The notes under the pieces: generated by a model
The model's input: only the letters and a program-made list of their open reading frames with translations
The model's database searches: none
What the model was told of the DNA's origin: nothing
Shown here: positions 4,598 through 23,839 of the stretch, in pieces
Numbering within the stretch: position 1 is the stretch's first letter
Layout of the letters: each line of letters opens with the position of its first letter
Position numbers and translations under genes: made by a program
Assembly: GCA_039587535.1 (NCBI GenBank)
Contig: JBDHIF010000011.1
Coordinates: forward strand, 1 to 64,000
From: Gemmatimonadota bacterium
GTDB taxonomy: Bacteria; Gemmatimonadota; Gemmatimonadetes; Longimicrobiales; Gaopeijiaceae
Length of the DNA stretch: 64,000 nucleotides
Reading direction: 5' to 3'

Positions 4598-4616
4598 GCG
4601 TGTCCGGGTGGCAACG

Positions 4617-4646: not shown

Positions 4647-4900
4647 CTCCACCTGCCGCCTCTCGTGCCGATAGTGCGGCCCTAGGGCGCTCCTGATCGG
4701 GTGTGTGATAGCACTCGACGATCGTCTGGGTGTTCTTCCAGCCACCAAGGTCGGCCGACACCTTCGACGGTTCATCCACCAGATTCGACGCGAACTTTCG
4801 TCGCAGGGAGTGCCAGCCCCCACCCCGCTTCGGCTCCACGCCAGCCGGGTCCTCGGCCTTGCGCCACCAGTCCCTGACCAGGTGCCTGGAACAAGGCCTA
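4642..4900 (-). pseudogene. Second truncated tyrosine integrase C-terminal fragment (..GGGWHSLRRKFASNLVDEPSKVSADLGGWKNTQTIVECYHTPDQE..)
   Basis: Paralogous to 306-560. The upstream part of the 277-aa ORF is low-complexity and non-homologous. Confidence 0.6.
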
Positions 4901-5637
4901 GTAGATGGGGCGCCGGGGGGATGTAGGAGTCCCCGATTCCAGGCGCGTGTCTCGCTACGGGCCTCCAGGGCCTCGTAAGCTCCCTCGGTGAGAGGCGTCA
5001 CACGCTCGAGACCAAGTTTGTCACTCTCAGTGCGCCAGCGGACGCTTCTCGCCCTCAAGTCCGCGTCCATTTCGGTCGTTGAGGCCGAAGGCGGCTGCTT
5101 TGTCGACTGGCGCGCAAGCTTCGAGGTGGCTGAGGGGCCGGCTGATGAGGCCTGCGGAATGATGAAGGGTGTGTATGAGGAAGGCATGTCTGCCCTGCGG
5201 GAGGCCCACGCCGGATGGGTACACCGGTCGACGTATGCGGGCGGGGCGGTAGGTACTGGATAGGTGGTGTCCGGTGCCCTCCCGTTCCCTTTGGCATGCA
5301 CCCCGACCCGCGTCTCACACATCTGTCCGCCACGTCTCACTCGGCTCGATCTGAAGGGCTTGGCGCGTTGGGATTGGACACGACAACCCGGGCACGGCCA
5401 GGACGACCGGTAGCCCAATGCCAATCCCAGCAACCGCGGCGTGAATCGGTCCGGACCCCGCTGTCTGACGGCCAAGCTGCGTCAGCAGCCATGCCGTTAT
5501 GGGGATTCCCAGGAAGGCACCCGTGCCCAGCTGAGCGATGGAGCGGCGACCACAGGTAAAGGCCAGACTGGAGTTGCGCGCTCCCACCACGGTTCGAACA
5601 CCGATCTCTCGGGTCCGCTCCGAAACCGAGAAGGAAG

Positions 5638-7077: not shown

Positions 7078-7091
7078 GGCGAGTTCTTGCC

Positions 7092-7427
7092 ATGAAGATG
7101 ATCATCGCGGTGATCAAGGCGGAGCAGCTACCTGCCGTGAAACAGGCGCTGTTTGACGCCGAGATCAGACACATGACGGCCACATCCGTCCTGGGAACTG
7201 CGCCGCGTACAGAGCAGCAGATGTACCGTGGTGTGAAGAAGGAGGTTTCGCTCTTCAAGCGGGTTCGCCTGGAGGTGGCGGTCAATGACGCCAACGTGGA
7301 GCGCGCCATCGAGGCCATATCCCGCGGATGTATGGAGTCGGGCGGCGCCGGGAAGATCTTCGTGACCGAGCTGCACGACGTCGTCACTGTGTGGACCGGC
7401 GAGCGCGGTTCGCGAGCACTGTACTGA
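7092..7427 (+). CDS. glnK: Nitrogen regulatory protein P-II (GlnK-type, divergent T-loop)
   Basis: MKMIIAVIKAEQLPAVKQAL.. is a P-II fold of 111 aa. The T-loop reads GTAPRTEQQMYRGVKKE (Tyr retained, RQKGH replaced). Confidence 0.8.
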   Translation: MKMIIAVIKAEQLPAVKQALFDAEIRHMTATSVLGTAPRTEQQMYRGVKKEVSLFKRVRLEVAVNDANVERAIEAISRGCMESGGAGKIFVTELHDVVTVWTGERGSRALY

Positions 7428-7434
7428 GGGCGTC

Positions 7435-8871: not shown

Positions 8872-8891
8872 CGGCTGCAGAAGGATCGATC

Positions 8892-10196
8892 ATGGACCAA
8901 GCACAGCTCATTGGGATCTACCTGGGCGTCGGCGCACTCGCGATCCTCGCGCTCGTGATCTTCGTCAAGGCGAACATCGTGATCTGCGCCCCGAACGAGG
9001 TGGTGATCATCTCGGGCCGGAAGCGGAAGACGAAGGACGGAACCGTCGTCGGCTACCGGCTGATTCGAGGCGGCAGGGGCTTCAAGTGGCCTCTCCTGGA
9101 ATCGGCGCGCCGTCTGCCGCTCACGACGCGCACCGTAGAGATTCGGCCGCACAGGGCCTTGTGCCAGGGAATGATTCCTGTGGATATCGAGGGGCGCGCC
9201 AATGTCAAGCTCGCGGGGCGTGAAGAGGATGGCCTCGAAGCGGGGATCGAGCGATTCCTCGGAAAGGGTGTGGAGGCGATCGACAAGACGGCTCAGCAAG
9301 TGCTCGAGGGTGCGCTACGGGGAGTGATCGCGGGTGTTCGCCCGGAAGAAGCAAACGAGCGCCGGCTCGAGCTGGCGCAGGACGTCGCTCAAAGGGCGCG
9401 TTCCGAGCTGTCTGGTCTGGGCATCGTCCTGGACTTCTTCCAGATCCAAGACCTCTCCGACGGGGCTGGCTATCTGGAGGCGATCGGACGCCGGCGAAAT
9501 GCCGAGGTTCAGCGTGATGCGCAAATCGCCGAGGCAGAGGCCGATGCCGAGGCACGGCAGGTTTCGGCCGAACAGAAGCGGCTCGGCCGTGAGGCCGAGA
9601 TCGCGGCCGAGCAGCTGGTCATCCAGAAAGAGAACGCGCTCGAAGTGCAGCGCGCGAATCTCGCTGCGCTCGAGAACGAGGCCAAGGAGCGGGCGTCGGT
9701 CGCCGGTCACATCGCCCGTGTCGATCGTGAGGTCGAGCTGGAGACGAGAAGGGCTGAGCTCAGCGAGAAGAAGCATGCCGCCGACACCGTCATACCGGCG
9801 CGCGCGCGCTCCGAGGCGGACCGACTGGAGGCGGAGGGGCGAGCCGCCCGGATCCGAGAGGAGGGACGGGCGACCGCCGAGGCCGTGCATGTGATGCGCG
9901 AAGAATGGGATGGCGGCGCAGCGCAGGATCTCTTCATGATTCGTATGTTCCCGGAACTGGTCGACAAAGTGACTCGAGTGGTGGCTGAGAACCTTCGTGT
10001 CGACAAGCTGACGATCCTCGATGGTGGTGGTGACGGTGGTGGAGACGGGTTGCCCAATTACGTCCGAAATCTCACGGGCAGCGCGGTAGCGATGATGGAG
10101 CAGATGAAGAACGCCACGGGGGTCGATCTCGCACGGATTGCGGAACGGGGCCGAGAGGGGCAGTCTCGGGCGGATGTGCCGAGCGAGCTGGACTGA
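8892..10196 (+). CDS. Flotillin-like SPFH/band-7 domain protein (FloT/YqiK family)
   Basis: N-terminal TM, an SPFH domain, a long EA-rich coiled coil (flotillin repeats) and a Gly-rich tail. Confidence 0.75.
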   Translation: MDQAQLIGIYLGVGALAILALVIFVKANIVICAPNEVVIISGRKRKTKDGTVVGYRLIRGGRGFKWPLLESARRLPLTTRTVEIRPHRALCQGMIPVDIEGRANVKLAGREEDGLEAGIERFLGKGVEAIDKTAQQVLEGALRGVIAGVRPEEANERRLELAQDVAQRARSELSGLGIVLDFFQIQDLSDGAGYLEAIGRRRNAEVQRDAQIAEAEADAEARQVSAEQKRLGREAEIAAEQLVIQKENALEVQRANLAALENEAKERASVAGHIARVDREVELETRRAELSEKKHAADTVIPARARSEADRLEAEGRAARIREEGRATAEAVHVMREEWDGGAAQDLFMIRMFPELVDKVTRVVAENLRVDKLTILDGGGDGGGDGLPNYVRNLTGSAVAMMEQMKNATGVDLARIAERGREGQSRADVPSELD

Positions 10197-10220
10197 ACCT
10201 CAAGGTCCTGGAGGCTGCGG

Positions 10221-10628
10221 GTGCATGACATGACGGAAAGCGATTCGGCGGCGCGCAAGGTCGAGGAGGTCCTCAGGCACCACGGACTGTCGCGGGACAG
10301 TGTGCTGTATCGGGAATCTCTTGAGACCTTCGTCGAACGGGATGACGACGGGCATGAGACGGTCACGGCCAATGCTGATCCGTCGGAGGCGGTCGTGAAC
10401 GTCTACGAGGGCGGTCATGTCGCGCTTGCGGCTCAGATCGGAGCGGGGCTCGCGTTCAATGAGCGACGAGACAACCAGTGGCGTGAGGAAGGTCGGGTGA
10501 CCGTGGCCGTGCGGCTCGGAGACGTGCTTGACCAGGGGGGGATGCTGTACCCGGTCGAGTCGGTGATCACTGAGCCCGTCTGGTACGTGACGTTGCCGGC
10601 AGGACGAGTCCGCGTGACACGAACCTAG
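10221..10628 (+). CDS. Hypothetical protein (135 aa), abutting the downstream sensor gene
   Basis: Stop at 10628 and GTG start of the next gene at 10629. No family recognised. Confidence 0.4.
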   Translation: MHDMTESDSAARKVEEVLRHHGLSRDSVLYRESLETFVERDDDGHETVTANADPSEAVVNVYEGGHVALAAQIGAGLAFNERRDNQWREEGRVTVAVRLGDVLDQGGMLYPVESVITEPVWYVTLPAGRVRVTRT

Positions 10629-12497
10629 GTGGCGCTCTCTTTGATACAGGATCGGTCGATCCGAGTCCGCGTCTTCGTCGTCCTCGCCGCCGTCGCGGTT
10701 CTATCCATTGGTGTGGTGGCGGCGGTGTCCTACCGCCTGGGATTGGCCACCCTCGAGCAGCAGGCGTTCGACCGCCTCACCTCGGTGCGTGAGTTGAAGG
10801 GGCGTCAGGTCGAGGGATATTTCCGCACGATCCGAGACCAGGTCGTCACGCACGCCGAGAATCGTATGACCATCGACGCGGTGCGTGAGTTCACGGCCGC
10901 CGCCACGACCCTGGAAGCAGAGCTGGGGGTGCCCGACGCGAGCGAGCGCGAGCTCTCTCTGCGGCTCTACTACCAGGATGAGTTTCTCCCCCGTCTCGGG
11001 GAGCGCGCTGCAGATGCCGGTGCTCTGTCCGCCTACTGGCCCGAGGACGCTCTGGCGCGCTCACTCCAGTACCTGTTCATCAGCGCCAGCCCGTTCGCCG
11101 TCGGTTCGAAGCAACTTCTGGACGATTCGGGTGCCGGGGTCCGGTACGATGACGTTCACGGGCGCTATCACCCCCTTTTCCGGAGTTTTCTCGAGCGGTT
11201 CGGCTACTATGACATCTTCCTCGTGGACGCGGCGACCGACCGAATCGTGTACTCGGTGTTCAAGGAGATCGACTTCGGCACGTCCCTCGAACGGGGTCCG
11301 CATCGAAGCTCGAACCTCGCGGCAGCATACCGAGCGGCACGAGATTCGGGGGTAGACTCATTCACCCACCTGGAGGACTTCGAACCGTATGCGCCATCGT
11401 ATGGTGCTCAAGCTTCCTTCATCGCATCTCCGATCTTCGACGGGGACGAAATCCTGGGCATTCTCGTCTTCCAGCTCCCGCTGGACCGTATCAACGAGTT
11501 GATGACGAGCGAGCGCGCCTGGCGGGACGTGGGGTTGGGGGCGTCGGGCGAAACGTACGTGGTCGGTTCGGACCAGAGGCTTCGAACCGAATCTCGCTTT
11601 CTCATAGAAGATCGCGAGGAGTACCTGGGTGCGATCGAGAGGGGTGGCCTCGACGAGCGTATCGTGCGGTCGATCGAGGCGCAGGGCAGCGCCATCGGGC
11701 TTCAACCGGTCCAGACAAACGGGGTGGAACGAGCGCTTGGGGGTGAAACGGGAACCGACCGCTTCCCCGACTATCGGGGCGCCGAGGTGTTCTCCAGCTA
11801 CCGACCTCTCACGATCCCAGATCTCGAGTGGGTGCTCATGAGCGAGATCGATTCGAGCGAAGCCCTCGCGCCGCTCGTTGCGCAGCGGAACCGTATGCTC
11901 GTGGCGCTGGCCATATTCCTGCCGCTGATCGGCGGACTGGCACTGTGGTTCGCCGGGAATCTCGTTCGCCCCATCGAGGCCCTGTCTCGGAGGGCCGAGG
12001 AACTCGCCAGGGGAGAGCTCGATCACGAGGTCGACATCTCGCGTGGCGACGAGATCGGTGAGCTCGCGCGCAGCTTCGAAGCGATGCGCGTGGCGTTGCG
12101 CGATCAAATCGATCGACAGAATCGTTCGATCGACGCCTTGTCCACGCCCCTGATCCCGATCCATGACGACGTCGTGGTCATGCCGCTCGTGGGTGAGCTC
12201 GACGAGGCGCGATGCGAGAGGGTTCGAGAGTCGCTCACGGCTCAGCTCCACAGCAATGGAGCGCGGTCGGTGATCCTGGATCTTACTGGAGTCTTGCGAC
12301 TGGATGACGATGTGGCGCGCGGGCTGATTCGGATTGCGCGAACTGCCCGTCTCGTGGGCGCGCAGGCCATCGTGTCGGGCGTCCGACCCGAACTCGCTGC
12401 TCAGCTGGCGGACGGCGACGTCGATACACAGGGCATCGTGACGGTGCGCACATTGAGAGACGCGATCGAGAGCGCCACGATGCACCGTGACGGGTGA
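10629..12497 (+). CDS. Membrane sensor with a periplasmic Cache-like domain, HAMP and C-terminal STAS (RsbR-like) domain
   Basis: TM1 and a ~380-aa periplasmic region are followed by TM2, a HAMP helix (..IEALSRRAEELARGELDHEVDISRGDEIGELARSFEAMRVAL..) and STAS (..VVVMPLVGELDEARCERV..ILDLTGV..VSGVRPELA..). Confidence 0.65.
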   Translation: MALSLIQDRSIRVRVFVVLAAVAVLSIGVVAAVSYRLGLATLEQQAFDRLTSVRELKGRQVEGYFRTIRDQVVTHAENRMTIDAVREFTAAATTLEAELGVPDASERELSLRLYYQDEFLPRLGERAADAGALSAYWPEDALARSLQYLFISASPFAVGSKQLLDDSGAGVRYDDVHGRYHPLFRSFLERFGYYDIFLVDAATDRIVYSVFKEIDFGTSLERGPHRSSNLAAAYRAARDSGVDSFTHLEDFEPYAPSYGAQASFIASPIFDGDEILGILVFQLPLDRINELMTSERAWRDVGLGASGETYVVGSDQRLRTESRFLIEDREEYLGAIERGGLDERIVRSIEAQGSAIGLQPVQTNGVERALGGETGTDRFPDYRGAEVFSSYRPLTIPDLEWVLMSEIDSSEALAPLVAQRNRMLVALAIFLPLIGGLALWFAGNLVRPIEALSRRAEELARGELDHEVDISRGDEIGELARSFEAMRVALRDQIDRQNRSIDALSTPLIPIHDDVVVMPLVGELDEARCERVRESLTAQLHSNGARSVILDLTGVLRLDDDVARGLIRIARTARLVGAQAIVSGVRPELAAQLADGDVDTQGIVTVRTLRDAIESATMHRDG

Positions 12498-12559
12498 GGG
12501 ACGGGCCGGCGCTGCGTTGGGGATTCGCGACAGACTGACTTAACACTTCGTAGAGGCGC

Positions 12560-13444
12560 ATGATGCACACCAATCACATCGACTATCGAGAGCTGCTGAC
12601 GCTCTATCGTATCACCGACGCTGATCTTCGGCGCATCGAGGCGTTCGGGGTTCAGGCCGTGAAACGGATGGATGAGCTGGTGGAGCGCTGGTACGCCTGG
12701 CTCGAGGTGTTGCCCGACTACGAAGACTTCTTCAGCGACCCCGAGACTCTGGCCCGAGTCCAGAAACTCCAGGACGGTTACTGGGATTTCTTCATGAAGG
12801 CCGCGGTCGACGACGAGTACGTGTCACGGCGGGTGCTCGTCGGTGAGGCGCACGCTCGAATCGGGCTATCGCTGAACACCTACTTCGCGGGCATGAACAT
12901 GTTTCAGGAGCTCTTCAGCGAGGTCGTACGCGACGGCGATTTCGAGGAAGGCGAGCGTCAGGCCACGATCGATTCCGTCTCCAAACTCCTCCACTTCGAC
13001 ACCGCCATCGTCGTCGATACCTACAACCGGCTGGTGGAGCAGACACTCACGGCTCAGTCGCGGGCGCTCATGGAGATGTCGACACCGGTCACGGAGATAT
13101 GGGAGGGCCTCCTGTTCCTGCCCATCGTCGGGATCATCGACTCGCGCCGGTCGCGCGACATCATGAACGCGACCTTGAGCAAGATCGCGGACACACAGGC
13201 ACGGGTATTCATTCTCGACATCAGCGGGGTCGGTGTGGTGGACACGGCAGTGGCGAACCACCTCATCAAGATTACCCGGGCGACCAAGCTCATGGGTTGT
13301 GAGACCACGATCTCGGGGGTCTCGCCGGCCATCGCTCAGACGATTGTCGATCTGGGTATCGACGTCGGCGAAGTGAAGACGACCGCGACCATGCGCGACG
13401 CTCTGGCCGACGCGGTCGAGCTCGTCCGGCAGGGCCGTCGGTGA
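12560..13444 (+). CDS. rsbR: Stressosome sensor RsbR-like (N-terminal non-haem globin-like domain plus STAS)
   Basis: N-terminal helical sensor domain, then STAS with ..LLFLPIVGIIDSRRSRD..ILDISGVGVVDTAVANHL..ISGVSPAIAQ.. Confidence 0.7.
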   Translation: MMHTNHIDYRELLTLYRITDADLRRIEAFGVQAVKRMDELVERWYAWLEVLPDYEDFFSDPETLARVQKLQDGYWDFFMKAAVDDEYVSRRVLVGEAHARIGLSLNTYFAGMNMFQELFSEVVRDGDFEEGERQATIDSVSKLLHFDTAIVVDTYNRLVEQTLTAQSRALMEMSTPVTEIWEGLLFLPIVGIIDSRRSRDIMNATLSKIADTQARVFILDISGVGVVDTAVANHLIKITRATKLMGCETTISGVSPAIAQTIVDLGIDVGEVKTTATMRDALADAVELVRQGRR

Positions 13445-13458
13445 GTGTGGCGTAGGCG

Positions 13459-13953
13459 ATGACGGATCGCGGCGCCCGGATTCCGCTCCAGCTTGCGCAG
13501 CAGTGCGTGGTGGCGTCGATCCAGGTGGACCTGGACGACCGAGTGCTGGCTGCGTTTCGGGCGGAACTCCTGGAGTTCCTGCGACGCTCCGGCGCGCGCG
13601 GAGTCATTCTCGACTTGTCGGGGGCTGCGGTGATGGACAGAGAGGAGTTCGGCGCTCTCCGAGACACGATGCGCATGGCGCTCCTAATGGGCGCAACGAC
13701 CATCGTTTCGGGGATGCGGCCGGGCGTGGTGTCCGCTCTGATCGACCTCGAGGCCGACACCGACGGGGTGCTGGCGACGGCGACACTCGACGATGCGTTC
13801 GACTTGATGCGAGAGACTCAGTCCGACAGGCACAGAGACGAGGAAGATGAGGTCGGGGAGGTCGACGAACCCCTCGAGGGTACCGGCGCGGAGGCCGTCC
13901 AACGCGATGAGACCGGACCCCACGCGCAGGTGAGTGCGTCGCCCGAACCATGA
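13459..13953 (+). CDS. rsbS: Stressosome scaffold RsbS-like (single STAS domain with acidic tail)
   Basis: ..VVASIQVDLDDRVLAAFRAELLEF..VILDLSGAAVMD..VSGMRPGVV.. Confidence 0.7.
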   Translation: MTDRGARIPLQLAQQCVVASIQVDLDDRVLAAFRAELLEFLRRSGARGVILDLSGAAVMDREEFGALRDTMRMALLMGATTIVSGMRPGVVSALIDLEADTDGVLATATLDDAFDLMRETQSDRHRDEEDEVGEVDEPLEGTGAEAVQRDETGPHAQVSASPEP

Positions 13954-15053
13954 GTCCTCGGTCGGTCAAGCGAATCCGGAGCGATCCGGACGTGAGTCAT
14001 GCGGTGATCGCGGCGTCGGATTTCGCGCGTCGACTCGACTTCAGTGAACTCGACAGTCGCTCCATCGGCACCGTCGTGTCGGAGCTAGCCACCAACATCA
14101 TCAAGTACGCGGTGGACGGCCGAGTAGTGATCGAAGAGGTGACCGCAGGCGACCGTCATGGGATTCAGGTCACCGTAGCCGATCGCGGCCCCGGGATCCC
14201 TAACATTCGTGAGGCACTTCAGGATCACTTCAGTTCGAGCGGGACGCTCGGCCTCGGCCTGCCTGGCGTCAGGCGCATGGTGGACGACTTCGACATCCAA
14301 TCGGAAGTGGGCCGAGGGACCACGGTGGTCGTCCGCAAGTGGCTGGGCGGGCCCTCACCGCGTGCTCGTAGGGCAGAGCTCTTGCAAGGCTCGTCGGCGA
14401 GCGCCGCATTCGCCGAGCGAGGCACCGATCGGGGGAGGGAAAGCTACGAGGCACCGAACGAGCCGGGGAGGCGGTTGCAGATCGGGTACGTGAACCGACC
14501 TTGCAGAGGTGAGCTGCTGAGCGGCGACGGTGTGCTCGTGACCGAGCTCGATGGTGCGGCGCTGATTGTGGTGGTCGATGGGTTGGGGCATGGCCGGGAC
14601 GCGCACGAGGCAGCGAAGGCGGCGACCCGGCTTGTTCGCAAGGAGCCGAACCTCGACCTTTCGGACCTGATGAGGCGGTTGGACGTCCGGTTGCAGGGAA
14701 CCGTCGGCGCGGCACTGTCGTTGTGCTCCATCGATCTCGATTCCGGCCTCGTTCGATACGTTGCGGTCGGGAACACCGTGTTGCGCATCGAGGGTGAGCG
14801 ATCGCGACGAGTCGGAGCCATGACAGGCACTGTCGGTAGTCGGCTCAAGGCGCCGAGGGTCGAGACCGCCGAGCTCTCATCGGAGGATGTGCTCCTGATT
14901 CACACGGATGGGATCTCGGAGCGCCTCACGCTGGAAGACTATCCGCAACTCCGATATCAGAGCCCCCAGACCGTGGCCGAGACGATCTTGTCCCGCTACG
15001 GAAAGAAGCACGACGACGCGACGGTGCTCGCCGCCAGATTCGAAGACTCATGA
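13950..15053 (+). CDS. Fusion of an RsbT-like GHKL serine kinase (HATPase_c) and a PP2C/SpoIIE phosphatase (RsbX-like)
   Basis: The N-terminal ..VSELATNIIKYA..VADRGPGIP..GLGLPGV.. is an anti-sigma-type kinase. The C-terminal PP2C has ..SGDGVL..VVVDGLGHG.. Its start shares ATGA with the rsbS stop. Confidence 0.65.
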   Translation: MSPRSVKRIRSDPDVSHAVIAASDFARRLDFSELDSRSIGTVVSELATNIIKYAVDGRVVIEEVTAGDRHGIQVTVADRGPGIPNIREALQDHFSSSGTLGLGLPGVRRMVDDFDIQSEVGRGTTVVVRKWLGGPSPRARRAELLQGSSASAAFAERGTDRGRESYEAPNEPGRRLQIGYVNRPCRGELLSGDGVLVTELDGAALIVVVDGLGHGRDAHEAAKAATRLVRKEPNLDLSDLMRRLDVRLQGTVGAALSLCSIDLDSGLVRYVAVGNTVLRIEGERSRRVGAMTGTVGSRLKAPRVETAELSSEDVLLIHTDGISERLTLEDYPQLRYQSPQTVAETILSRYGKKHDDATVLAARFEDS

Positions 15054-16729
15054 TCGAGCTCGGCACGATCACGGGGGGAGCGGAGGGTGCCGTTCGGGAC
15101 GCGCGCAGGAAGGTTCACGCGGCTCTCGAGCGGTTGACGGCGGATGACATGCTGGCCAGTCGGATCGCTTCGGTCACCTCCCAGATCTTTCGGGCGATCG
15201 AGCGCGGTGCGAATCCAGGCAGGATCATCGTTCGCTTCGATGAGGCGGGAGCCCAGCCTACGTTCGTTCTCGACCTGATCGGTGTCGGCGGTGAGGTCGA
15301 CGAGGCGACGGCCGCATCGTTCTTCGATCAGGTCGTTTGGGTTCGGGTCGGCGATGTACCGTGCCTGCGGCTTGGTCTCTACATCCACATCGCCCCGGGA
15401 TTGGAGCTTACCGAGCGCCGCGTCGCGGAATTGCGCGGCGTGATCGAGCAGAAGGGGAGGGATGCGCTGATGCAGGAGCTCACCCTGAAGAACCGGGAGC
15501 TCCAGGATTCGTTCGACAACCTCCGTCGGACCACCACGGCCAAAGAGCGGATGGAGAGCGAGCTCAACATCGGTCGGGACATCCAGATGAGCATGCTGCC
15601 GCTCGAATTTCCGGCGTTCCCGCACCGCACCGACTTTACGGTATTCGCTACCCTCGAGCCTGCGCGGGAGGTCGGAGGGGATTTCTACGACTTCTTCCTC
15701 CTCGACGAGGATCGCTTCTGTTTCTGTGTTGGAGATGTCTCCGGCAAAGGGGTGCCTGCGGCACTCTTCATGGCCGTCACCAAGACGCTTATCAAGTCGC
15801 GCGCGACCAACGATTTCTCACCAGCCAGCATTCTCACGCACGTCAACGACGAGATCTCGACCAACAACGACTCGGCGATGTTTGTGACGCTCTGGCTGGG
15901 CATCCTGGACGTGACGTCCGGAGCGCTGGAGTACACGAACGCCGGACATAACCCGCCTTATCTCCTGCGCCACACGGGGGAGGTGGTGCGGTTGGACGAG
16001 CGGCACGGTCCCGTGCTCGGTGCTGTGGACGGACTCGTCTATTCCGAGGGCTCCGGTCAGTTGGAGCGCGGTGACGTCGTCTTCGTGTACACCGACGGTG
16101 TCACCGAGGCGATGGACCCGGACGGGCAGCTCTACGAGGAGGACCGCCTCGTTGAGGTCCTTCGGGCGAGCGATATCGATTCGGTGGAGTCTTTGGTTCG
16201 TGCATCGACCGACGACGTGTGGCGTTTTCAGGCCGACGCGGAACAGGCCGACGACGTCACCGTGCTGGCGGTCGAGTTCTCCGGCCGGCCCGGTGGCTCC
16301 GAAGGCGTCCACATTCTCGAGCTGTCAGTTGCGAATCGACTCGAAGAGATCGACTCCGTCAACGAATCCTTCGAGGCGTTCGCAGCCGAGCACGGGCTCC
16401 CGGAGAAGGTCCGGAGAAGTATGAAGCTCGTTTTCGACGACTTGTTGAACAACGTGATCTCGTACGCATACGAGGACGAAGAGGAGCATCGCATCGGCGT
16501 GCGCGTCGAGTTGTCCTCCGATCGGGTCGCCGTACGCATCAGTGACGACGGGCACCCGTTCAATCCTTTCGGCCGGAATGCGCCGGACACGGCGCTGGCC
16601 CTGGGTGCGAGGGAGATTGGAGGTCTCGGTATCCACCTCGTGCAGAACCTGATGGACGAGGTCTCGTACACGCGGCGAACCGATGAAAACGTCGTTCTGC
16701 TGGTGAAATACCTATCAAATTCGGAATGA
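15050..16729 (+). CDS. RsbU-like PP2C phosphatase fused to a C-terminal RsbW-like GHKL kinase domain (N-terminal regulatory domain plus coiled coil)
   Basis: The PP2C has ..GGDFYDFF..CVGDVSGKGVPAALFMA..YTDGVTEA.. The C-terminal HATPase_c has ..DDLLNNVISYAY..ISDDGHPFNPF..GLGIHLV.. Confidence 0.65.
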   Translation: MIELGTITGGAEGAVRDARRKVHAALERLTADDMLASRIASVTSQIFRAIERGANPGRIIVRFDEAGAQPTFVLDLIGVGGEVDEATAASFFDQVVWVRVGDVPCLRLGLYIHIAPGLELTERRVAELRGVIEQKGRDALMQELTLKNRELQDSFDNLRRTTTAKERMESELNIGRDIQMSMLPLEFPAFPHRTDFTVFATLEPAREVGGDFYDFFLLDEDRFCFCVGDVSGKGVPAALFMAVTKTLIKSRATNDFSPASILTHVNDEISTNNDSAMFVTLWLGILDVTSGALEYTNAGHNPPYLLRHTGEVVRLDERHGPVLGAVDGLVYSEGSGQLERGDVVFVYTDGVTEAMDPDGQLYEEDRLVEVLRASDIDSVESLVRASTDDVWRFQADAEQADDVTVLAVEFSGRPGGSEGVHILELSVANRLEEIDSVNESFEAFAAEHGLPEKVRRSMKLVFDDLLNNVISYAYEDEEEHRIGVRVELSSDRVAVRISDDGHPFNPFGRNAPDTALALGAREIGGLGIHLVQNLMDEVSYTRRTDENVVLLVKYLSNSE

Positions 16730-16745
16730 AGGAGTATTACGGATC

Positions 16746-17078
16746 ATGAACATCTCGGTCAGCGTCAACGGAGACGTCACTGTCGTCGGCTTCGAGGGGA
16801 ATCTCGACACGAACACGGCGCCCGAAGCGGAAGCGCGCCTGGATGAGCTGGCGAGTGGGGGGGGCGGCAAGATCCTGATCGACTTCGCCGATCTCGACTA
16901 CATCTCTAGCGCCGGGCTTCGAGTGCTTCTGGCGACCGCGAAGAAGCTGCGTGGTGCAGGAGGCAACCTTCGACTGTGCAGCCTCAACGAGATGGTTTCG
17001 GAGGTATTCGAGATCTCGGGCTTCAGCACGATCTTCGCGGTGTTCCCAACGGAAGCGGAGGCGCTGGAGGGCTTCTGA
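16746..17078 (+). CDS. Anti-sigma-factor antagonist-like STAS protein (RsbV/SpoIIAA family)
   Basis: 110 aa with ..KILIDFADLDYISSAGLRVLL.. and a conserved Ser in DYISS. Confidence 0.75.
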   Translation: MNISVSVNGDVTVVGFEGNLDTNTAPEAEARLDELASGGGGKILIDFADLDYISSAGLRVLLATAKKLRGAGGNLRLCSLNEMVSEVFEISGFSTIFAVFPTEAEALEGF

Positions 17079-17197
17079 TGGTCGATGCTCATTTGGGTTC
17101 GCATAGTGCATCGCCGGGTGTCGTCTCCGAGGAATCGCGCACTCTGTGACATCGTAGTCGTGTCTAGTCGGACGGCTGCATTTTTCGGGAGTCTGCT

Positions 17198-19786
17198 GTG
17201 AATATCGTTATTGCGGACAGCGTCGTTCGTGGAACGCTGAGCCCGGAGCGGCAGTTCCACGGCATTCCCTCGAACCTCGGTGCCCGCGAGATCGCCCGGC
17301 TCATGGGCCGGGGTCGAGCATATGGCGAAGGCCCCCTGCCGTCGATTATCCGAGCAGCGGCGGCATCAGGCGGGCGCACGGGTCTCGTGCTGCTCCGTGA
17401 GGTGGCACCGCAGGACGAGGCAGGCGCGTCGAACGGTGTATCGGGAGCTCGTGAGGCGCTCGCGGAATGGGTCGACCCGGTTCGATCCGTAGCCGCTGCG
17501 GCATCGGCGCTCGATTGCGCTCCCGGGCGAATTCCCTGGCGCACGCTGATCAAAAGGATCGCCGGCGTGGCGGGTGTCGAAGAGAGTTCCGTAGCCGACG
17601 GTATCGCCGACCTCGGCTTCCTCGTGGTGGGATGCCAAACGGAGGAGCGGATCCAGGCGATCGCGACATTCCTGAGGACTGTCCTCGGTTTCGAGCGCGT
17701 CGCTGTAAGTCCCCACCTCGTAGGGAGTGCCACGGCCGAAGCGCACTACGCGGTGCTACGCCACAACCTGCCTCGGTCCGGCGTGAACGTACTTCTCGAT
17801 CTGGGTGAGGCAGCCAGGTGGGTCGACATCGATCCCGATCGTGCCGGGCTCGCGGGAGGTGCGCCTTGCGTGATCGGGCCGCGTGAAGCTCGCGAGCAGA
17901 TGGAGGCCGACGCCCAGCGCATCGTCCAATTGATCTGCATGCACTGGACGAGGGCGAAACTGCGCGCTCTGGCAGGAGGGTTCAGCGGGAGTCTGCTTTT
18001 CCTCGCCGAGGGCTTGAAGGGCGAGGCGCGGACTGAGCCGATGGTGATCAAGATCGACGCCTTCGCTCAGATGCGACGTGAGCTCGACGGCTACCATCAG
18101 GTGAAGGACCTCTTTGGCAAGCACGTGCCCACGTTCGGGTACCCGGTCCGTCAGGGCAGCCTGCTCGGTGTCGGGATGGAGCTGGCAGCGATGAAGGGCG
18201 ACCCAACTACGCTGCAGGACGACTTCGAGAAGGCGGACTCAGAGTCTCTGCTGGTACGCTTTCTCACCCGGCTCGAGAAATCTCTGGACCTCCTGTCTGA
18301 AAAGCTCTACGGCAACACGCTAGAGCGTGGCAGCGTCGCCCCGTTCCGGATTTTCGGGCTGCACTCGGCTCAACAGATCGTGTGGCTGAGGGAGAACGCT
18401 ACGATCATTCAAGGCTATTTCGATGAGTCCAGCCACTCCGTTGAAAACGTCGATCTGGACCAGCTCGAGAATGTGGCACGCTTGATAACGCGGAATCCCG
18501 ATGCGGTCCAGTCCGAGCTCTGTCTGCAGCACGGCGACCTGAATCTCGCCAACGTCATCTGCGACGAAGGCGACAACGTGTGGTTCATCGACTGGACGCA
18601 CAGTGGAATCCACCCGCTGGAACTCGACTTCGCGAAGCTCGAGAACGACGTGAAGTTCGTGATGAGCAAGGACTTCGATGTCGATGATCTACCCCGGCTG
18701 CACGCATTCGAAGAGTACCTTCTCAACCAGAGGATCCCGGGTTCCGCAGAAGAGCTTCCGGACGCGTTGAAGTTCGCGAAGTGGGATCTGCGCTTCCGGA
18801 AGATCCTCGCCGCCGTGCGTCTGATTCGTCAGCGCTGTGACCGGCTCAAAGAGGGTGATGATTGGCTGGTCTATCGGGTGGCCTTGCTGCGATATGCCAT
18901 GCACACGCTCAGCTTCGATCAGCGCAGGGGAGGGGGTGAGTGTGACGAGACTCAGCTCATGTATGCCCTGTACTCGTGCGAGTCGCTCTCGCTTTCGCTC
19001 GTTGCCGACGATTTTCACCTCAAAATTCGCGCCGAGCGGCCCGCGTCGTACCCCGAACGCCAGCGCATCTCGATCGACGAGTCGCTGTGGCTTCTGGATT
19101 GCGAAGATTACGCCCCTCCCTACCACGTCGATCAGACCGTGTTGGAAGCGGCGGGTGATCGCGGCGACAAGGGGTGGGCGGATCCGGAAGAGGTGGACTC
19201 TGCCGTGCTGGCCGAGCGACCGGCACGCTTCCGGGACGATGAGGGACGGCCGCTGAACCCGCGTGGCCGCACGGGGATCGCTGGCCGGGGACTTCTGGGC
19301 CTATGGGGCGCCAACGCGTCGGTCGTGGGTGTCGTGCTGCGTACCAGCGCGGTGACGGGTGAACTCCAGATCCTGCTCGGTTCCAGCGAGGACGACCCGA
19401 CGCTCCAGGTGCCGAAGGGGTTCCTCTTCCCGGACGAACAACCAGAAGACGGTCTTCTCCGCGTCATGCAGGTGGAAGCCGGTTGGCGACCTCAGGGGGC
19501 GCCGATCCCGTTGAGTGACGGCTACGCGTACGACGCCCGCCAGACGGACCACGCCTGGGTCGAGCAGCGAGCGTATCTGTTCGACCCTGCGGAGGAGGAC
19601 GTTCCGGATCTCTTCGACCCGGCGGGTGATCTCGACGAGGTCTCGTGGTGGCCCCTGGATGTGGAGACGATGACCCGGATTCCGGCGGGTCAGGCTCCGG
19701 TGATCAACGAGGCGCTGGAAGCCGCACGCGGGGCGGGGCGGCTCGACGAAGAGCTGGCGGGGCGACTGATCCGCAGGGCCGTCTGA
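17198..19786 (+). CDS. Three-domain protein combining an N-terminal isochorismatase-like domain, a choline/ethanolamine-kinase (APH-fold) domain and a C-terminal NUDT9-like Nudix domain with a degenerate Nudix box
   Basis: The kinase region has HGDLNLANVICDEGDNVWFIDWTHSG (Brenner motif plus DxE/W). The Nudix region has ..NPRGRTGIAGRGLLGLWGANASVVGVV.. (NUDT9 signature) and the box GFLFPDE-x7-RVMQVEAGW (REx2EE degraded to RVMQVE). The N-terminal region has ..LVVGCQTEERIQAI.. resembling the G-x-C/T-D motif region of cysteine hydrolases but lacking the Cys. Confidence 0.5.
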   Translation: MNIVIADSVVRGTLSPERQFHGIPSNLGAREIARLMGRGRAYGEGPLPSIIRAAAASGGRTGLVLLREVAPQDEAGASNGVSGAREALAEWVDPVRSVAAAASALDCAPGRIPWRTLIKRIAGVAGVEESSVADGIADLGFLVVGCQTEERIQAIATFLRTVLGFERVAVSPHLVGSATAEAHYAVLRHNLPRSGVNVLLDLGEAARWVDIDPDRAGLAGGAPCVIGPREAREQMEADAQRIVQLICMHWTRAKLRALAGGFSGSLLFLAEGLKGEARTEPMVIKIDAFAQMRRELDGYHQVKDLFGKHVPTFGYPVRQGSLLGVGMELAAMKGDPTTLQDDFEKADSESLLVRFLTRLEKSLDLLSEKLYGNTLERGSVAPFRIFGLHSAQQIVWLRENATIIQGYFDESSHSVENVDLDQLENVARLITRNPDAVQSELCLQHGDLNLANVICDEGDNVWFIDWTHSGIHPLELDFAKLENDVKFVMSKDFDVDDLPRLHAFEEYLLNQRIPGSAEELPDALKFAKWDLRFRKILAAVRLIRQRCDRLKEGDDWLVYRVALLRYAMHTLSFDQRRGGGECDETQLMYALYSCESLSLSLVADDFHLKIRAERPASYPERQRISIDESLWLLDCEDYAPPYHVDQTVLEAAGDRGDKGWADPEEVDSAVLAERPARFRDDEGRPLNPRGRTGIAGRGLLGLWGANASVVGVVLRTSAVTGELQILLGSSEDDPTLQVPKGFLFPDEQPEDGLLRVMQVEAGWRPQGAPIPLSDGYAYDARQTDHAWVEQRAYLFDPAEEDVPDLFDPAGDLDEVSWWPLDVETMTRIPAGQAPVINEALEAARGAGRLDEELAGRLIRRAV

Positions 19787-19788
19787 TC

Positions 19789-20733
19789 GTGTCTCTCCTG
19801 AACCAAGAACGCGCCGCGCTCGACGGATTCCGCTCCGCGCGGCCTCTGGTGACGAGGTCCGACGCCCTCGAGGAGGCTGCAGCGAATCGAGCTGATACGG
19901 ATCGACCGGTGGAGGAGCTCGTGTGGACGACGTTCCTCCTGCGTACGGTGCTCGAGGCGGGTCGGACCGTCCGCGCCGTACCTCCGTCCGTGTTGGAGCT
20001 CAAGCGAGACGGGTCACCGGTGACCGCGCTCGAGCGTGACATCGAGCTCGAAATCAAAGAGGCTCTCGAGGTGTTCGAACCCGAGGCGGTCTTCGTAGGT
20101 GAGGAAAGTGGCGGGTGGCTGCACGACGCGGGTTGGACACTCAGCATCGATCCCATCGATGGCACGTGGGCGTTCCTCTCGCACACGGAGACATTCTCCG
20201 TGGTGATGAACCTCTTTCTAGAAGGCCAGCCCTTCATGGGCGTCGTGGCGAGTCCGTTGACCGGTGAGATCGGTTACGCGGCAGCGGGTGGAGGGACCCG
20301 GCTCGTGCGCCTCGACGTCCTCGGCGAAGGCGACCAGGGGTTCGCGCTACCGTTGGGCGATCGAGACTCCAAGAAGACCCTCGTGAACTTGCACCCGGCC
20401 GAACGAGGCTCGCGGCTGGTGTCGGCCTTCTACGAAGCATGGGAACGACGGGACGTCCGTATGGTCCGTGCGCCCGGTGGATCCCCGTCGTGGGCCATGC
20501 TCGAGGCGGCGCGGGGACACTTCACTTATGTGAACGAGTGGGCCAAGTCCGCAGCGGATCCGTGGGATCTGGCTGCAGGCGTCCTCCTCGTGAACGGAGC
20601 GGGCGGCGTGGTCGTGGATCTCGACGGCCAACCGATCGATCCCGTGGGCCACATCGGCCCATTCGTCGCCAGCGTGTCCGAGCAGCAGTGCTCACGCGTC
20701 TTGTCGATCGTACGCGAGGCCTTAAGCCCATGA
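19789..20733 (+). CDS. Inositol monophosphatase / CysQ-family phosphatase (3'(2'),5'-bisphosphate nucleotidase-like)
   Basis: It has ..FVGEESG.., DPIDGT and WDLAAG motifs. The start was moved to GTG 19789, just after the upstream stop, because the upstream part of the 19645 ORF overlaps the previous gene. Confidence 0.65.
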   Translation: MSLLNQERAALDGFRSARPLVTRSDALEEAAANRADTDRPVEELVWTTFLLRTVLEAGRTVRAVPPSVLELKRDGSPVTALERDIELEIKEALEVFEPEAVFVGEESGGWLHDAGWTLSIDPIDGTWAFLSHTETFSVVMNLFLEGQPFMGVVASPLTGEIGYAAAGGGTRLVRLDVLGEGDQGFALPLGDRDSKKTLVNLHPAERGSRLVSAFYEAWERRDVRMVRAPGGSPSWAMLEAARGHFTYVNEWAKSAADPWDLAAGVLLVNGAGGVVVDLDGQPIDPVGHIGPFVASVSEQQCSRVLSIVREALSP

Positions 20734-22016
20734 GTTTTTGGCGGACCTCCGAGACGCCACCGGTGTCGACCGGCGCCAGACTGAGAATCGTCGGCGTCGT
20801 CCTCGTCTTTGTCCTCGTTGCAGGGTCCTTCCTCGCCGGAGTCGAAACCTCGGGCCTCGAAGCGACGGAGGCGGGCTCGATTCTCGCGTGGATCTACTAC
20901 GCAGCGGGGCTGTTCGTCTTCGGTGGATTGGATCTCGGCACTCCGATCGGTGGGCCAATCGCTGCGCGAGGGATGCTGTGGGTTGCGTACTTCTTGGCGC
21001 CCGCGATCACGACGACCACGGTTGTGGAAGCAGTCATTAGGCTCGTCCGCCCGGCTCGGTCGCCGGCAGCATCGGTCACGGGCCACCTGATCCTGGTCGG
21101 GGCCGGCCCGATCGGCCTGGCGTACCTCAAGGCCGTTCGTCGGGTCGATCCTGATGTCCCAGTGCTCATCGTGGATCGCTTCGAGGGTGAGGTGACACTT
21201 GCCGAGGTCGAGCGCTTGGGTGGGGTTCATCCCGTTTCCGTGGATCCACGGCGGCCGGCGGCCCTCGAAGTCGTGGGGTTGGAGCGTGCCGATCGGATGG
21301 TCGTGGTGACGGACGACGACCTCACCAATCTCGAGGTGGCATGGGCGGCGCGGGCAGCTCGGGCGGACCTCCCCATCGCCGTGCATGTGGCCGACCTCAC
21401 CCTGCTTCGGCCCGTCAATCGGCTCGTGCGGGACCAAGCCCGAGCCGCGGATCCGGGCGGAGCACCGCCCCTGGTGTTCAACACCCACAGGATCGGAGCA
21501 CTGCACCTGTACGAGCGCTTCCTCCACCCGCATTTCGAGGGTACACGGTACGAGGACGTTGTCGTGCTCGGCGGATTCGGGCGCTTCTCGCAGACCATCC
21601 TGGAGCTCTTGAGGGTGACGGCTGCGGATGAAATCGAGCGATTGGTCGTGGTCGACCCCGATGCATCGAGGAAGGTACGTCAATTCGCGGTGGACGTACC
21701 CCTGGAAGTCCTGAGTTTCACGACGGTGGACGGCGACCTCGAAGACCCCGGGACGTGGGCACGGGTCGACGATGAGGTCGCGGGGCTCGAGGCCACTCCG
21801 GTGTATCTGCTCGCCTCGTCCGACGAGGTCGTGAACTTCCGGGCTGCCATGCTCCTGCGGGCCCGCTCGAGGGAGCCGCGGGTCTTCGCTCGGTGCTTCC
21901 ACCGCGGCCAGTTTGCAGAGTCACTCGCGGAGCAGCGTGATTTCGAACTGCTCGCGTTCGAGGACGTTCTTCGCGATGCCCTGGTCGAACACTACGAGGG
22001 GCTCAAGACGGTGTGA
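20730..22016 (+). CDS. 2TM pore-loop ion channel with two C-terminal RCK/TrkA-N (NAD-binding Rossmann) domains and a non-canonical filter (..FVFGGLDLG..)
   Basis: TM1, a pore-helix-like AWIYYAAGLFVFGG and TM2 are followed by two GxGxxG Rossmann domains (LILVGAGPIGLAY.., VVVLGGFGRFS..). The start overlaps the IMPase stop (ATGA). The 3' end is duplicated at window start. Confidence 0.6.
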   Translation: MSFWRTSETPPVSTGARLRIVGVVLVFVLVAGSFLAGVETSGLEATEAGSILAWIYYAAGLFVFGGLDLGTPIGGPIAARGMLWVAYFLAPAITTTTVVEAVIRLVRPARSPAASVTGHLILVGAGPIGLAYLKAVRRVDPDVPVLIVDRFEGEVTLAEVERLGGVHPVSVDPRRPAALEVVGLERADRMVVVTDDDLTNLEVAWAARAARADLPIAVHVADLTLLRPVNRLVRDQARAADPGGAPPLVFNTHRIGALHLYERFLHPHFEGTRYEDVVVLGGFGRFSQTILELLRVTAADEIERLVVVDPDASRKVRQFAVDVPLEVLSFTTVDGDLEDPGTWARVDDEVAGLEATPVYLLASSDEVVNFRAAMLLRARSREPRVFARCFHRGQFAESLAEQRDFELLAFEDVLRDALVEHYEGLKTV

Positions 22017-22245
22017 CATTGGGCCGGTTCTTGGGCCCACTCGACCCGGTAGCTTCCGACGTCACATTCCGGCAAGAACGGCAGATCGTGCGCCCCGCCT
22101 TGGGTTTACACGGTTTCTTGCCGGAATTCGGCTAAGCTGCTATCGGCCTGATGAGCGTGAGGTCGGTAGTTCAAATCTACCCAGGCCCACTTTTGGAAGT
22201 GATGGCCCCGCTTGGCTTTGGATGGCCAAGCGGGGCTTCTTCGTT
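22017..22245 (+). ncRNA. Copy 4 (best-context copy) of the structured tRNA-like 3'-UTR RNA element with terminator (22204-22244), immediately downstream of the channel gene
   Basis: Same architecture as copy 1 with ~90% identity over ~225 nt. Confidence 0.5.
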
Positions 22246-22320
22246 GCTCGTCGGGACGTCGGTCCCGTCCTCCCGGGCGGTTCGCGGCCGGAGGCATCCG
22301 CGCGCTCGCGACCCGGCGTC

Positions 22321-23629
22321 TCAGTCCGCCCCAGGGCGCAGGGTCAGGCGATGCATGAGCACCGCGGCGCGCTTGGTCTGCACCGCAAGAGTCGGGAGAT
22401 CGATCCACTCGTCGACGGTGTGGTCGCTGCCGCCGCCGGGTCCGAGCCCGTCGATCGCGGTATCTACGTACCCCGCGGTGAACGATACGTCCGCCGCTCC
22501 GGCGTTTCGGGGGTCGACGGCCGTCACTTCGCCAAACCCGAGGTCCTGGCTGGCCTGGCTGAACATGGCCAGGAGCCGGTGGTTCCCGTCGGTGGGCGCG
22601 AGCGGCGGGTAGCCTTCAGCGAAGGAGAGGGTCGCGGAGGTGCCCGGGCGGTTCTGCCCGGCTACGAATCGCATGACCGCCTGGGTCCGCTCCACCTGCT
22701 CCAGGGAAATGGCCCGCAGGTCGCCCGTGACGACAGCGCTCTGCGCCACGACGTTGTTCTTCCCGAATGCCGAGCCCCCGGCGGAGACTTCGTCGTAGGT
22801 GACGTCCGTCCCTCCCAGGATCAAGCCAGGGTTGAAAGTCAGTAGCGGCTCGCCGGCCAACCCATCGTAGAATTCGTGGAGGATTCGCGATGCCTCGTAG
22901 ATGGCTCCGGCCCCGATCTCCGGCTGGAAGATCTGCGAGGAGTGTGCAGGCGTGCCGGTCACGTCGAGCCGCCAGCCCAGCGAGCCTCTGCGCGCCACCA
23001 CGGCCGTCGCCGGGTTGCTGTCCCCGTTCTCGAACGCGAGGACGACATCCGCCTGTTCCGCCGCCTGCACGAGGGCCGCGCGGGCCAGCTCCAGGGGACG
23101 GCCACTCCGTTCCTCGTCGCCCGTCATCACGACCGTGATGCTCATCTCGTCGAGGCGACCGGCCGCCTCGAGGGCCTGGAGCGCGTGCACGATGGCCACG
23201 TCTCCGCCCTTCATGTCCACGACCCCGGGGCCGCCAGCCCGGTCGCCTTCCCGGGCGAAGCGCTGCAGGGGGCTGCTGGGCTCGAACACCGTGTCCAGAT
23301 GGCCGATCAAGAGCAGACGGGGGCCCACCCCGTTCCGCCGGGCGACCAGGTGTCCGGCCCGTTCCCATGCGGCACCGTCGATCCACTCGGTGTCGAAGCC
23401 CAGCGCGTCGAACTCCGCGCGGAACAGGGTCCCGACCTCGCGCACCCCCTCGAAGTTCATCGTGCCGCTGTTGATGTTCACGGCGCGCTCCAGGAGCGCG
23501 ATGGCGTCGTCGGCGCCGGCGTCCACCGCGCTTGCGATCCGCTGCTCGACGGTCGAGAGGGACTGGGCCTGGACGAGCGTGGGTGCGAAAGCGCCGAGCA
23601 CTACGAATAGGGCGGCGATGCGGTTCATC
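22321..23629 (-). CDS. M20 family metallopeptidase (carboxypeptidase G2-like), secreted
   Basis: Signal peptide MNRIAALFVVLGAFAPTLVQA. M20 motifs ..LIGHLDTV.., ..VVDMKGG.., ..GDEE.. The start was trimmed from the ORF track. Confidence 0.75.
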
Positions 23630-23839
23630 GGTCGAGCTTTCCTGAGCAGGAGTCGTTTGGCGGGGTCGTTGGGTGTCCCACAATGACCGTCCCCGCCCCC
23701 GCGCGCCACGTCTTCGGTCAATTCCGGCGCGGTTCACTCCGCGACCTCCGAACGTGTTGGCTCCGGTACAAAACAAGAGGCCCTGGGCCGCGGCCCAGGG
23801 CCTCTTCTGTATTCGATGAGCCAAACAGCCCGGCCCGGG

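Follow-up and report, generated by a model that had tools for sequence, protein, structure and literature searches.

What does a partner-switching cascade control when no sigma factor gene accompanies it? Partner-switching cascades and stressosomes are widespread, their outputs beyond the sigma-B paradigm are mostly unknown, and the outputs that have been described are sigma factors, two-component systems, and diguanylate cyclases. We considered this question in a window of 64,000 nucleotides from a Gemmatimonadota bacterium (Longimicrobiales, Gaopeijiaceae; GenBank assembly GCA_039587535.1, contig JBDHIF010000011.1, positions 1 to 64,000 of the forward strand), in which six switch genes are followed by three adjoining genes, here called G1, G2, and G3. 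G1 encodes an isochorismatase-like domain, a kinase, and a NUDT9-like domain in one chain, G2 a phosphatase of the IMPase family, and G3 a pore-loop channel with two RCK lobes. The original prediction took these genes for a single undescribed unit, in which a molecule derived from ADP-ribose or NAD would be made or sensed by G1, trimmed by G2, and read by the RCK ring of G3, as in a TRPM2 channel split over separate polypeptides. Our analyses point to a different arrangement, in which a stressosome-type cascade without a sigma factor is genomically tied to two separate partners, the first consisting of G1, the phosphatase, and a small HopF-like protein (s135), and the second of G3. We hold this reading tentatively and give it, taken overall, a little less than an even chance.

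The first partner is recognizable across distantly related lineages. With each species represented by a single genome, a scan for G1 yielded 69 loci. They come from metagenome-assembled genomes (MAGs), apart from a Kitasatospora locus that matched in the NUDT9 region only and was left out of the counts. The loci belong to Gemmatimonadota, Acidobacteriota, Planctomycetota, Gamma-, Alpha- and Deltaproteobacteria, Myxococcota, Bacteroidota, Acidimicrobiia, Verrucomicrobiota, and Armatimonadota (about ten phyla). An IMPase gene is present at 58 of the 63 informative loci, on the same strand and directly downstream of G1 in 52, and this recurrence makes it implausible that the adjacency and the architecture arose by chance. 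In 28 of 33 well-flanked loci, G1 has a PP2C, RsbW-like, or STAS gene no more than 8 kb away. STAS genes stand directly 5' of G1 in more than 15 related loci, and directly 5' of either G1 or a K+ channel gene in more than 30. A shared arrangement, RsbW-STAS-(K+ channel)-G1-IMPase, is seen in Gemmatimonadota, Acidobacteriota, Bacteroidota, Planctomycetota, Acidimicrobiia, and Myxococcota. The gene for the K+ channel, which has six transmembrane (TM) helices, a TVGYGD filter, and a C-terminal cyclic nucleotide (cNMP)-binding domain, separates STAS from G1 in 26 loci of several phyla (e.g., positions 802-2181 of locus L011); the window does not have it, and a 119-nt gap is found in its place.

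The pairing of G1 with a phosphatase persists even where one of the components has changed. A G1 relative without the NUDT9 domain still precedes an IMPase gene, and in locus L009, which has no IMPase gene, G1 is followed by a paralogue (positions 10552-12918) that ends in an HCxxGxxRS (CX5R) phosphatase motif. These two cases make the coupling of kinase and phosphatase the most robust feature of the system. The L009 paralogue has the same kinase and an isochorismatase-like N-terminal domain with a canonical-looking QNDF motif, and its CX5R motif replaces NUDT9.

Of the proposed three-gene unit, G1 and G2 thus form a conserved pair, but the unit as a whole is not supported. The original prediction named missing co-occurrence elsewhere as grounds for refuting it, and in general the three genes do not occur together: of 44 informative loci, 14 have G3 after G1 and G2, and every one of these belongs to Gemmatimonadota. 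The affiliations of the channel became clearer from its own relatives, collected in a metagenome scan (80 loci) together with a motif tabulation. Among relatives with at least 44% identity, 31 of 35 are found either by G1 or IMPase genes (18) or, without G1, by STAS, RsbW, or Cache-STAS genes (13), and below 44% identity such linkage is seen in 2 of 58. STAS is the commonest neighbour of G3 relatives in an unbiased clustering of the neighbouring open reading frames (ORFs), and in minimal clusters G3 is the sole gene that does not belong to the switch. Five distant homologues were also inspected; three lie beside STAS, two of these with an RsbW-like gene as well, and neither G1 nor IMPase occurs there. 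Since the clade of G3 keeps company with RsbW and STAS also at loci that lack G1 and G2, the simplest view is that the switch acts on G3 directly and that G3 does not read the G1 product, and the linkage pattern favours two parallel partners over a split TRPM2. The conserved unit would then be the switch, G1, and the IMPase (with s135), and the channel would be a lineage-specific addition linked independently to the switch; the original interpretation is only partly supported.

The composition of G1 agrees with the original prediction on the evidence of Pfam, profile matches, and fold. Pfam recognizes TCAD9 (85 bits, cut-off 40), APH (36 bits), and NUDIX. In a search of the PDB with a profile built from 28 homologues, residues 616-843 match human NUDT9 (1q33, E 6.6e-23), and matches to TRPM2 NUDT9-H domains follow (E 1e-19 to 3e-14). 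The homology covers the core plus the N-terminal cap, and G1 shares with both groups the signatures GRTGxxGRGxLGxWGxN and DxRxTDxAW; in the family they take the form PRGRTGxAGRGxLGxWGxN and YDxRQTDHAWVE and are essentially invariant in the 113 full-length homologues over which residue conservation was counted. PF25969 also appears in precomputed annotations of G1 homologues.

As had been proposed, the Nudix box of G1 is degraded in the manner of TRPM2. The REFGEE of NUDT9 corresponds to RILRQE in human TRPM2, and the profile alignment places the NUDT9 motif opposite R-V-[LM]-x-x-E, which replaces REUxEE in 113 of 113 G1 homologues (RVMQVEAGW, residues 755-763, in the window). Position 756 corresponds to the glutamate of 'RE'; it holds Val in 99 of the 113 and Ile in 9, and never Glu. 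Position 759 (the first glutamate of 'EE') is variable, and position 760 is Glu in 88, the only glutamate of REUxEE to be kept. The catalytic box GX5EX7REUXEEXGU with its three glutamates is thus absent from the family. G1 further differs from NUDT9 in missing the insertion after the Nudix box, and from TRPM2 in that a kinase and an isochorismatase fold, rather than a channel, share the chain with the domain; binding of ADP-ribose is a prediction in its case.

The N-terminal domain has the three-layer alpha/beta fold of the isochorismatase/nicotinamidase family, and the precomputed Pfam annotation of one relative (P0339) reads 'Isochorismatase (weak) + TCAD9'. Unlike the fold, its sequence has no detectable similarity to PncA and other isochorismatase-like hydrolases. 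When VVG145-C-x-T148-x-x-R151 is mapped onto GIATDHC138, which we take to be the PncA motif, Arg151 appears to fall at the position of the cysteine nucleophile, and the arginine is found in 107 of 113 homologues. Asp7 is kept in 95 of the 113, and no invariant catalytic lysine was seen. The flanking domains of G1 descend from nicotinamidase and NUDT9, which destroy nicotinamide and ADP-ribose, respectively, the two molecules into which NAD+ is cleaved, and, as judged from these motifs, both appear to have lost key catalytic residues.

The kinase that lies between them appears to be intact. The GGxSGS loop, K285, E295, H445-G-D447-L-N...N452, and I-D465-W-T-H are invariant in 113 of 113 homologues, and provide the glycine-rich loop, beta3 lysine, alphaC glutamate, HxDxxxxN loop, and metal-binding aspartate of the APH fold. 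We predict from these motifs that the kinase is catalytically competent and of the small-molecule type. TCAD9 (PF19974) is a kinase-like domain of 'ternary complex' conflict systems, and G1 scores above its cut-off; relatives combine the isochorismatase-like domain with TCAD9, whereas the G1 clade adds NUDT9 and sits with partner-switch and IMPase genes. No MoxR-vWA ternary systems were seen beside the G1 clade. The two-domain relatives were observed beside IMPase (L155), beside LSDAT_prok/SLOG (L156), and beside PRK, NUDIX, and WLM (L158), contexts that suggest wider nucleotide-centred settings for the kinase family.

G2 belongs to the IMPase family, as expected, with a Pfam Inositol_P score of 106 bits (above threshold) and intact metal and catalytic motifs (GEE, DPIDGT, and WDxAAG). 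It shares the fold and metal motifs of SuhB, CysQ, HisN, and the archaeal NADP phosphatase, but falls far below the NCBIfam equivalog cut-offs of the named subfamilies SuhB, HisN (83.5 bits, cut-off 275), and CysQ (TIGR01331; 68.6 bits, cut-off 228.8). It also differs from these named subfamilies in an N-terminal extension of about 50 residues and in its obligate pairing with the G1 kinase.

The third component, s135, represents a family of 534 proteins of about 135 residues each, and is part of the conserved module. Its profile remotely matches the effector HopF1 (PDB 1s21, E 5e-7) in two colinear blocks that include the YR motif. PF09143 matches 8 of 10 members, and the window protein itself reaches 23.6 bits against a Pfam cut-off of 25. 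The YR motif (Arg31) is invariant, and the acidic position E113 is Glu in 7 of 10. The HopF/AvrPphF-ORF2 effectors are longer (about 200 residues), whereas s135 has no secretion context, is found in MAGs of non-pathogens, and varies at the acidic position. In loci without G3, s135 is encoded directly 3' of the IMPase, and in one MAG (L044, positions 3802-5118) a single 438-residue ORF fuses the IMPase with s135.

The second partner, G3, is a pore-loop channel of the GsuK type, gated by RCK lobes and carrying a non-K+ filter, insofar as its structure is correctly modelled. The AlphaFold2 (AF2) monomer model (pLDDT 89) has TM1 at residues 14-35, a pore helix at 51-64, a loop at 65-76, TM2 at 77-106, and two Rossmann lobes, and its best Foldseek matches in the PDB are the TrkA ring, full-length GsuK (4gx1/4gx5, E about 1e-9), Slo1, and MthK. 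Pfam finds only two TrkA_N domains, with the pore missed by Ion_trans_2 and the TrkA_C lobe not detected. Like GsuK and MthK, G3 carries TM1, pore helix, loop, TM2, and two RCK lobes in one chain, but it has FGGLDLG where those channels have TVGYGD, and its clade is linked to STAS and RsbW. The motif [FL]GG[LMTV]D[LIV]G is kept in 93 of 93 relatives examined, and the K+ filter T-[VI]-G-[YF]-G is absent from them. The channel has a pore of its own (TM1, pore helix, TM2) and so is not a TrkA subunit, and no TrkH or KtrB gene is found within the array, all in line with what had been proposed for it.

Both RCK lobes keep GxGxx[GA] and the acidic residue after beta2. The idea that the RCK1 GxGxxG loop might be kept only in channels linked to G1 was rejected, as these fingerprints occur throughout the family and are thus ancestral to all of these channels rather than a G1-linked trait. 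In one subclade linked to STAS and RsbW (L082, L083, L085, L087, L088, and L071), the RCK1 glycine loop has been lost (LIGSSNAA), with the pore motif and the RCK2 loop kept. An amtB gene was noted near G3 relatives in L077, L083, L106, and L109, and L094 (positions 2-1422) holds two convergent G3-like genes beside a fragment resembling the G1 N-terminal domain.

Domain searches identified six switch genes upstream of G1, which places G1 to G3 directly 3' of a partner-switching module, as the original prediction had it. A serine-bearing STAS protein, a HATPase_c_2 serine kinase, and a PP2C phosphatase, the three parts of RsbV/RsbW/RsbU systems, are encoded together, and no sigma factor gene was found in 5776-22016. 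From its sequence, the cascade looks like a canonical stressosome and partner switch without a sigma factor output in the array. In common with RsbRST and RsbUVW of Bacillus, Vibrio vulnificus, and Moorella, the locus has RsbR-, RsbS-, RsbT-, PP2C-, RsbW-, and RsbV-like parts. It departs from these systems in the missing sigma factor, in the pairwise fusion of kinases and phosphatases, and in having as neighbours G1-IMPase and ion channels, which are not found among the described outputs.

We suspect that the two partners work in the following way. In the first, the flanking domains of G1 may bind nicotinamide or NAD and ADP-ribose, either as sensors or as substrate holders, and the kinase would phosphorylate a nucleotide derived from ADP-ribose or NAD, with a protein substrate being less likely. 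G2 would remove the phosphate added by G1, and s135 may contribute ADP-ribosylation chemistry that generates the ligands; together the three would form the conserved core of the switch output. In the second partner, the RsbW-like kinase or a STAS protein would bind the RCK ring of G3 directly. We infer each binding event, each substrate, and the direction of the signal from the domains, the residues kept or lost, and the gene linkages.

A more complete scenario would have a mobile 15-gene island with a stressosome whose switch targets metabolic and membrane machinery and not a sigma factor. RsbW or STAS would bind and so directly gate GGxDxG RCK channels, themselves a new family, the kinase would read nicotinamide and ADP-ribose (perhaps supplied by the HopF-like ADP-ribosyltransferase (ART)), and the IMPase would reset a messenger resembling phospho-ADP-ribose, so that stress and NAD status are coupled to fluxes of ions and ammonium. 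We consider this scenario unlikely to hold in its entirety. The parts all come from known superfamilies (NUDT9, isochorismatase, PKL/TCAD9, IMPase, RCK, HopF ART, and Rsb), and what is new is their combination and the proposed outputs of partner switching. We found no description of the gene combination or of the two proposed switch partners in the literature, in keeping with the earlier view of the system as undescribed. The locus offers two candidate outputs with conservation over about ten phyla, a kinase that is flanked by decayed NAD-catabolite enzyme domains and paired with a phosphatase, and a family of pore-loop channels with an unusual filter. If the complete scenario is correct, bacteria would have a signalling pathway based on ADP-ribose, and partner switches a new kind of output; if the ligands are as suggested, G1 would be a bacterial enzyme sensing ADP-ribose and nicotinamide by the TRPM2 type of NUDT9 decay. 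The linkage to amtB-glnK-glnA and to K+ channels suggests an unexplored regulation of ammonium and cation homeostasis in sediment bacteria.

Several observations weigh against the two-partner reading. Five of the 33 well-flanked G1 loci have no partner-switch gene within 8 kb, and just 9 of the 33 have s135 at that distance, a protein that varies at its presumed catalytic acidic position. The tight overlap of G2 and G3 in 14 Gemmatimonadota loci would also be expected if the proteins shared a ligand. The profile search of the PDB found no homologue of the kinase core, and an hhalign comparison of the N-domain profile with Mycobacterium tuberculosis PncA gave nothing useful, so the equivalence of cysteine and arginine still depends on the motif. 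Residual or altered catalysis is possible in both flanking domains, given how often Glu760 and Asp7 are kept. To our knowledge, there is no experimental precedent for RsbW or STAS binding directly to a channel or to G1, and all of the data come from MAGs and metagenomes.

Among the alternatives, the one that fares best reverses the flow of the signal, although we think it improbable. G1-IMPase would be the input of the switch, with G1 sensing NAD+ or ADP-ribose status and phosphorylating or otherwise controlling STAS or PP2C, and the outputs would be the channels and the nitrogen-assimilation genes. The position of STAS immediately before G1 would suit this direction, as would the minimal clusters with G3 as the only non-switch gene and the recurrence of the K+ channel, amtB, glnK, and glnA nearby. 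An amtB-glnK-glnA-flotillin block, recovered by clustering the neighbouring ORFs, adjoins G1 in about 15 loci of six phyla (Gemmatimonadota, Acidobacteriota, Gamma- and Deltaproteobacteria, Bacteroidota, and Planctomycetota), including L004, L009, L028, L041, L045, L046, L054, L056, L057, L067, and L068. However, the cascade already encodes three dedicated sensors (Cache-HAMP, globin, and RsbT-like) and has in RsbW a kinase for STAS, and folds of the APH/choline-kinase type more often act on small molecules. The Bacteroidota loci also argue against the reversal, since they contain only RsbW, STAS, G1, IMPase, and PP2C beside flotillin-glnA-glnK-amtB, leaving G1-IMPase as the sole non-switch genes in their own operon.

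More doubtful still is an ordinary metabolic operon that recycles NAD(P) or ADP-ribose, or handles a phosphorylated intermediate, under nitrogen co-regulation and without signalling. The intact active sites of kinase and phosphatase are what such a pathway would need, amtB-glnK-glnA adjoins them, and the IMPase family includes phosphatases of NADP and pAp (according to NCBIfam names). Yet canonical catalytic residues appear to have been lost family-wide in both of the NAD-related domains, and no further pathway enzymes are conserved nearby. A kinase and a phosphatase for the same phosphate form a regulatory pattern, and the frequent linkage to PP2C, RsbW, and STAS would be unusual for salvage.

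The split TRPM2 is, in our estimate, less probable again. Beyond the decayed Nudix box and the ATGA overlap of G2 and G3, it would account for the G1-G2-G3 order, which recurs in metagenome loci L079, L080, L086, and L154 in addition to the 14 Gemmatimonadota loci. The nucleotide-binding fingerprints of both RCK lobes are compatible with it, and GsuK, the closest solved architecture, was crystallised with ADP and NAD (PDB titles). Among choanoflagellate channels, TRPM has been reported in a 2026 preprint to carry NUDIX domains and TRPV to carry isochorismatase-like ones (bioRxiv 10.64898/2026.06.15.732245), a suggestive parallel to G1 that we do not treat as evidence. Should the proposal for G1 hold, it would bear on the origin of NUDT9-H and isochorismatase-like sensors on eukaryotic TRP channels. 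Nevertheless, 30 of the 44 informative G1-G2 loci have no G3, none outside Gemmatimonadota has one, and other phyla carry the cNMP-gated K+ channel in the cluster instead of an RCK channel. Close G3 relatives stand by RsbW and STAS without G1 and G2, and the fingerprints, being family-wide and lost in one STAS-linked subclade, do not track G1.

Finally, a mobile conflict or defence island, with the NAD+-consuming ART, the TCAD9 kinase, and the channel as abortive-infection effectors, could be read from the Pfam name of TCAD9, the LSDAT_prok, PRK, and NUDIX genes beside distant two-domain relatives, the HopF-like fold, and the integrase-like ORF, att-like repeats, and lower GC content described below, but is very unlikely given that PADLOC returned 0 matches for G1, G2, G3, s135, STAS110, and PP2C-RsbW, that the proteins are highly conserved rather than fast-diversifying (66% mean column identity across phyla), and that the array includes housekeeping amtB-glnK-glnA and a stress-sensing stressosome.

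The preferred reading, with two partners of one switch, applies to the distal end of the array listed in Table 1. The genes run in the order amtB, glnK, glnA, flotillin, s135, the six switch genes, G1, G2, and G3, with intergenic gaps of at most 62 nt and the gap ahead of G1 as the sole exception. Coupling of the last three genes, as originally proposed, is borne out by their boundaries. The TGA stop of G1 (19784-19786) is followed two bases on by the in-frame GTG that starts G2, a start backed by tblastn alignments in related loci, and the ATG of G3 shares bases with the stop codon of G2 (ATGA). A promoter-like site precedes amtB, and the terminator-like hairpin beyond G3 is likely the end of the array.

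Table 1. Positions of the array, its genes, and neighbouring features in the window
Feature	Position	Strand	Size or sequence	Remarks
Whole array	5776-22016	+	15 genes	amtB to G3; region studied is the distal end
Promoter-like site	5691			ahead of the amtB array
amtB	5776-7077	+
glnK/P-II	7092-7427	+
glnA	7435-8871	+
Flotillin/SPFH	8892-10196	+
s135	10221-10628	+	135 aa	HopF/AvrPphF-ORF2-like (ADP-ribosyltransferase fold)
dCache-HAMP-STAS	10629-12497	+		membrane sensor
Protoglobin-STAS	12560-13444	+		RsbR-like sensor
STAS	13459-13953	+		RsbS-like
RsbT-like HATPase-PP2C	13950-15053	+		fusion
PP2C-RsbW	15050-16729	+		PP2C (SpoIIE) fused to RsbW-like HATPase_c_2 kinase (RsbW domain at aa ~420-559); catalytic motifs intact
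STAS110	16746-17078	+	110 aa	single-domain RsbV/SpoIIAA-like STAS; phosphorylatable Ser54 in DYISSAGL
Gap ahead of G1	17079-17197		119 nt	no K+ channel gene
G1	17198-19786	+	862 aa	ORF
G1 isochorismatase/nicotinamidase-fold domain	17198-17932	+	aa 1-245
G1 TCAD9/APH-type kinase core	17933-18997	+	aa ~246-600
G1 NUDT9-like domain	19010-19783	+	aa ~605-862	with cap
G1 degenerate Nudix box	19418-19486	+	G741-x5-E747-x7-R755-V-M-Q-V-E-A-G-W
G2	19789-20733	+	314 aa	IMPase-family phosphatase
G3	20730-22016	+	428 aa	pore-loop channel with two RCK lobes
G3 filter-position motif	20919-20939	+	FGGLDLG	aa 64-70
G3 pore loop	aa 65-76 of G3		FGGLDLGTPIGGP	between pore helix and TM2
Terminator-like hairpin	22204-22237	+	14-bp stem	10 GC pairs; ~190 nt past G3
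Direct repeats	167-212, 4304-4349, 22146-22191		46 nt	three copies
Long repeat	2-265 and 21981-22244		264 nt	takes in last 36 nt of G3
Integrase-like ORF	4645-5475	-		adjoins middle repeat copy
Rejected ORF	21913-22845	+	310 aa	probably not a gene
M20 peptidase gene	22321-23721	-

One further ORF downstream was considered and discarded as a gene candidate; it matches no Pfam or other family, overlaps the end of G3, the long repeat, and the terminator hairpin, and runs antisense to the M20 peptidase gene.

The stretch from amtB to G3 may lie in an integrative island. Each of the three 46-nt direct repeats holds an exact 30-nt sequence (0 copies expected by chance) that resembles the 3' half of a tRNA, with T-arm and acceptor strand. 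Neither ARAGORN nor Rfam (gathering threshold over 1-24000, E-value threshold over 21850-22350) found a tRNA, tmRNA, or other RNA gene, so the tRNA-like repeats are not an annotated tRNA or tmRNA. The GC content of the window ranges from 62 to 68%, at 0.62-0.635 over the first 20 kb and 0.65-0.68 further on. Two loci (L159 and L160) have two copies of the repeat upstream of amtB, with the same spacing of 4137 nt.

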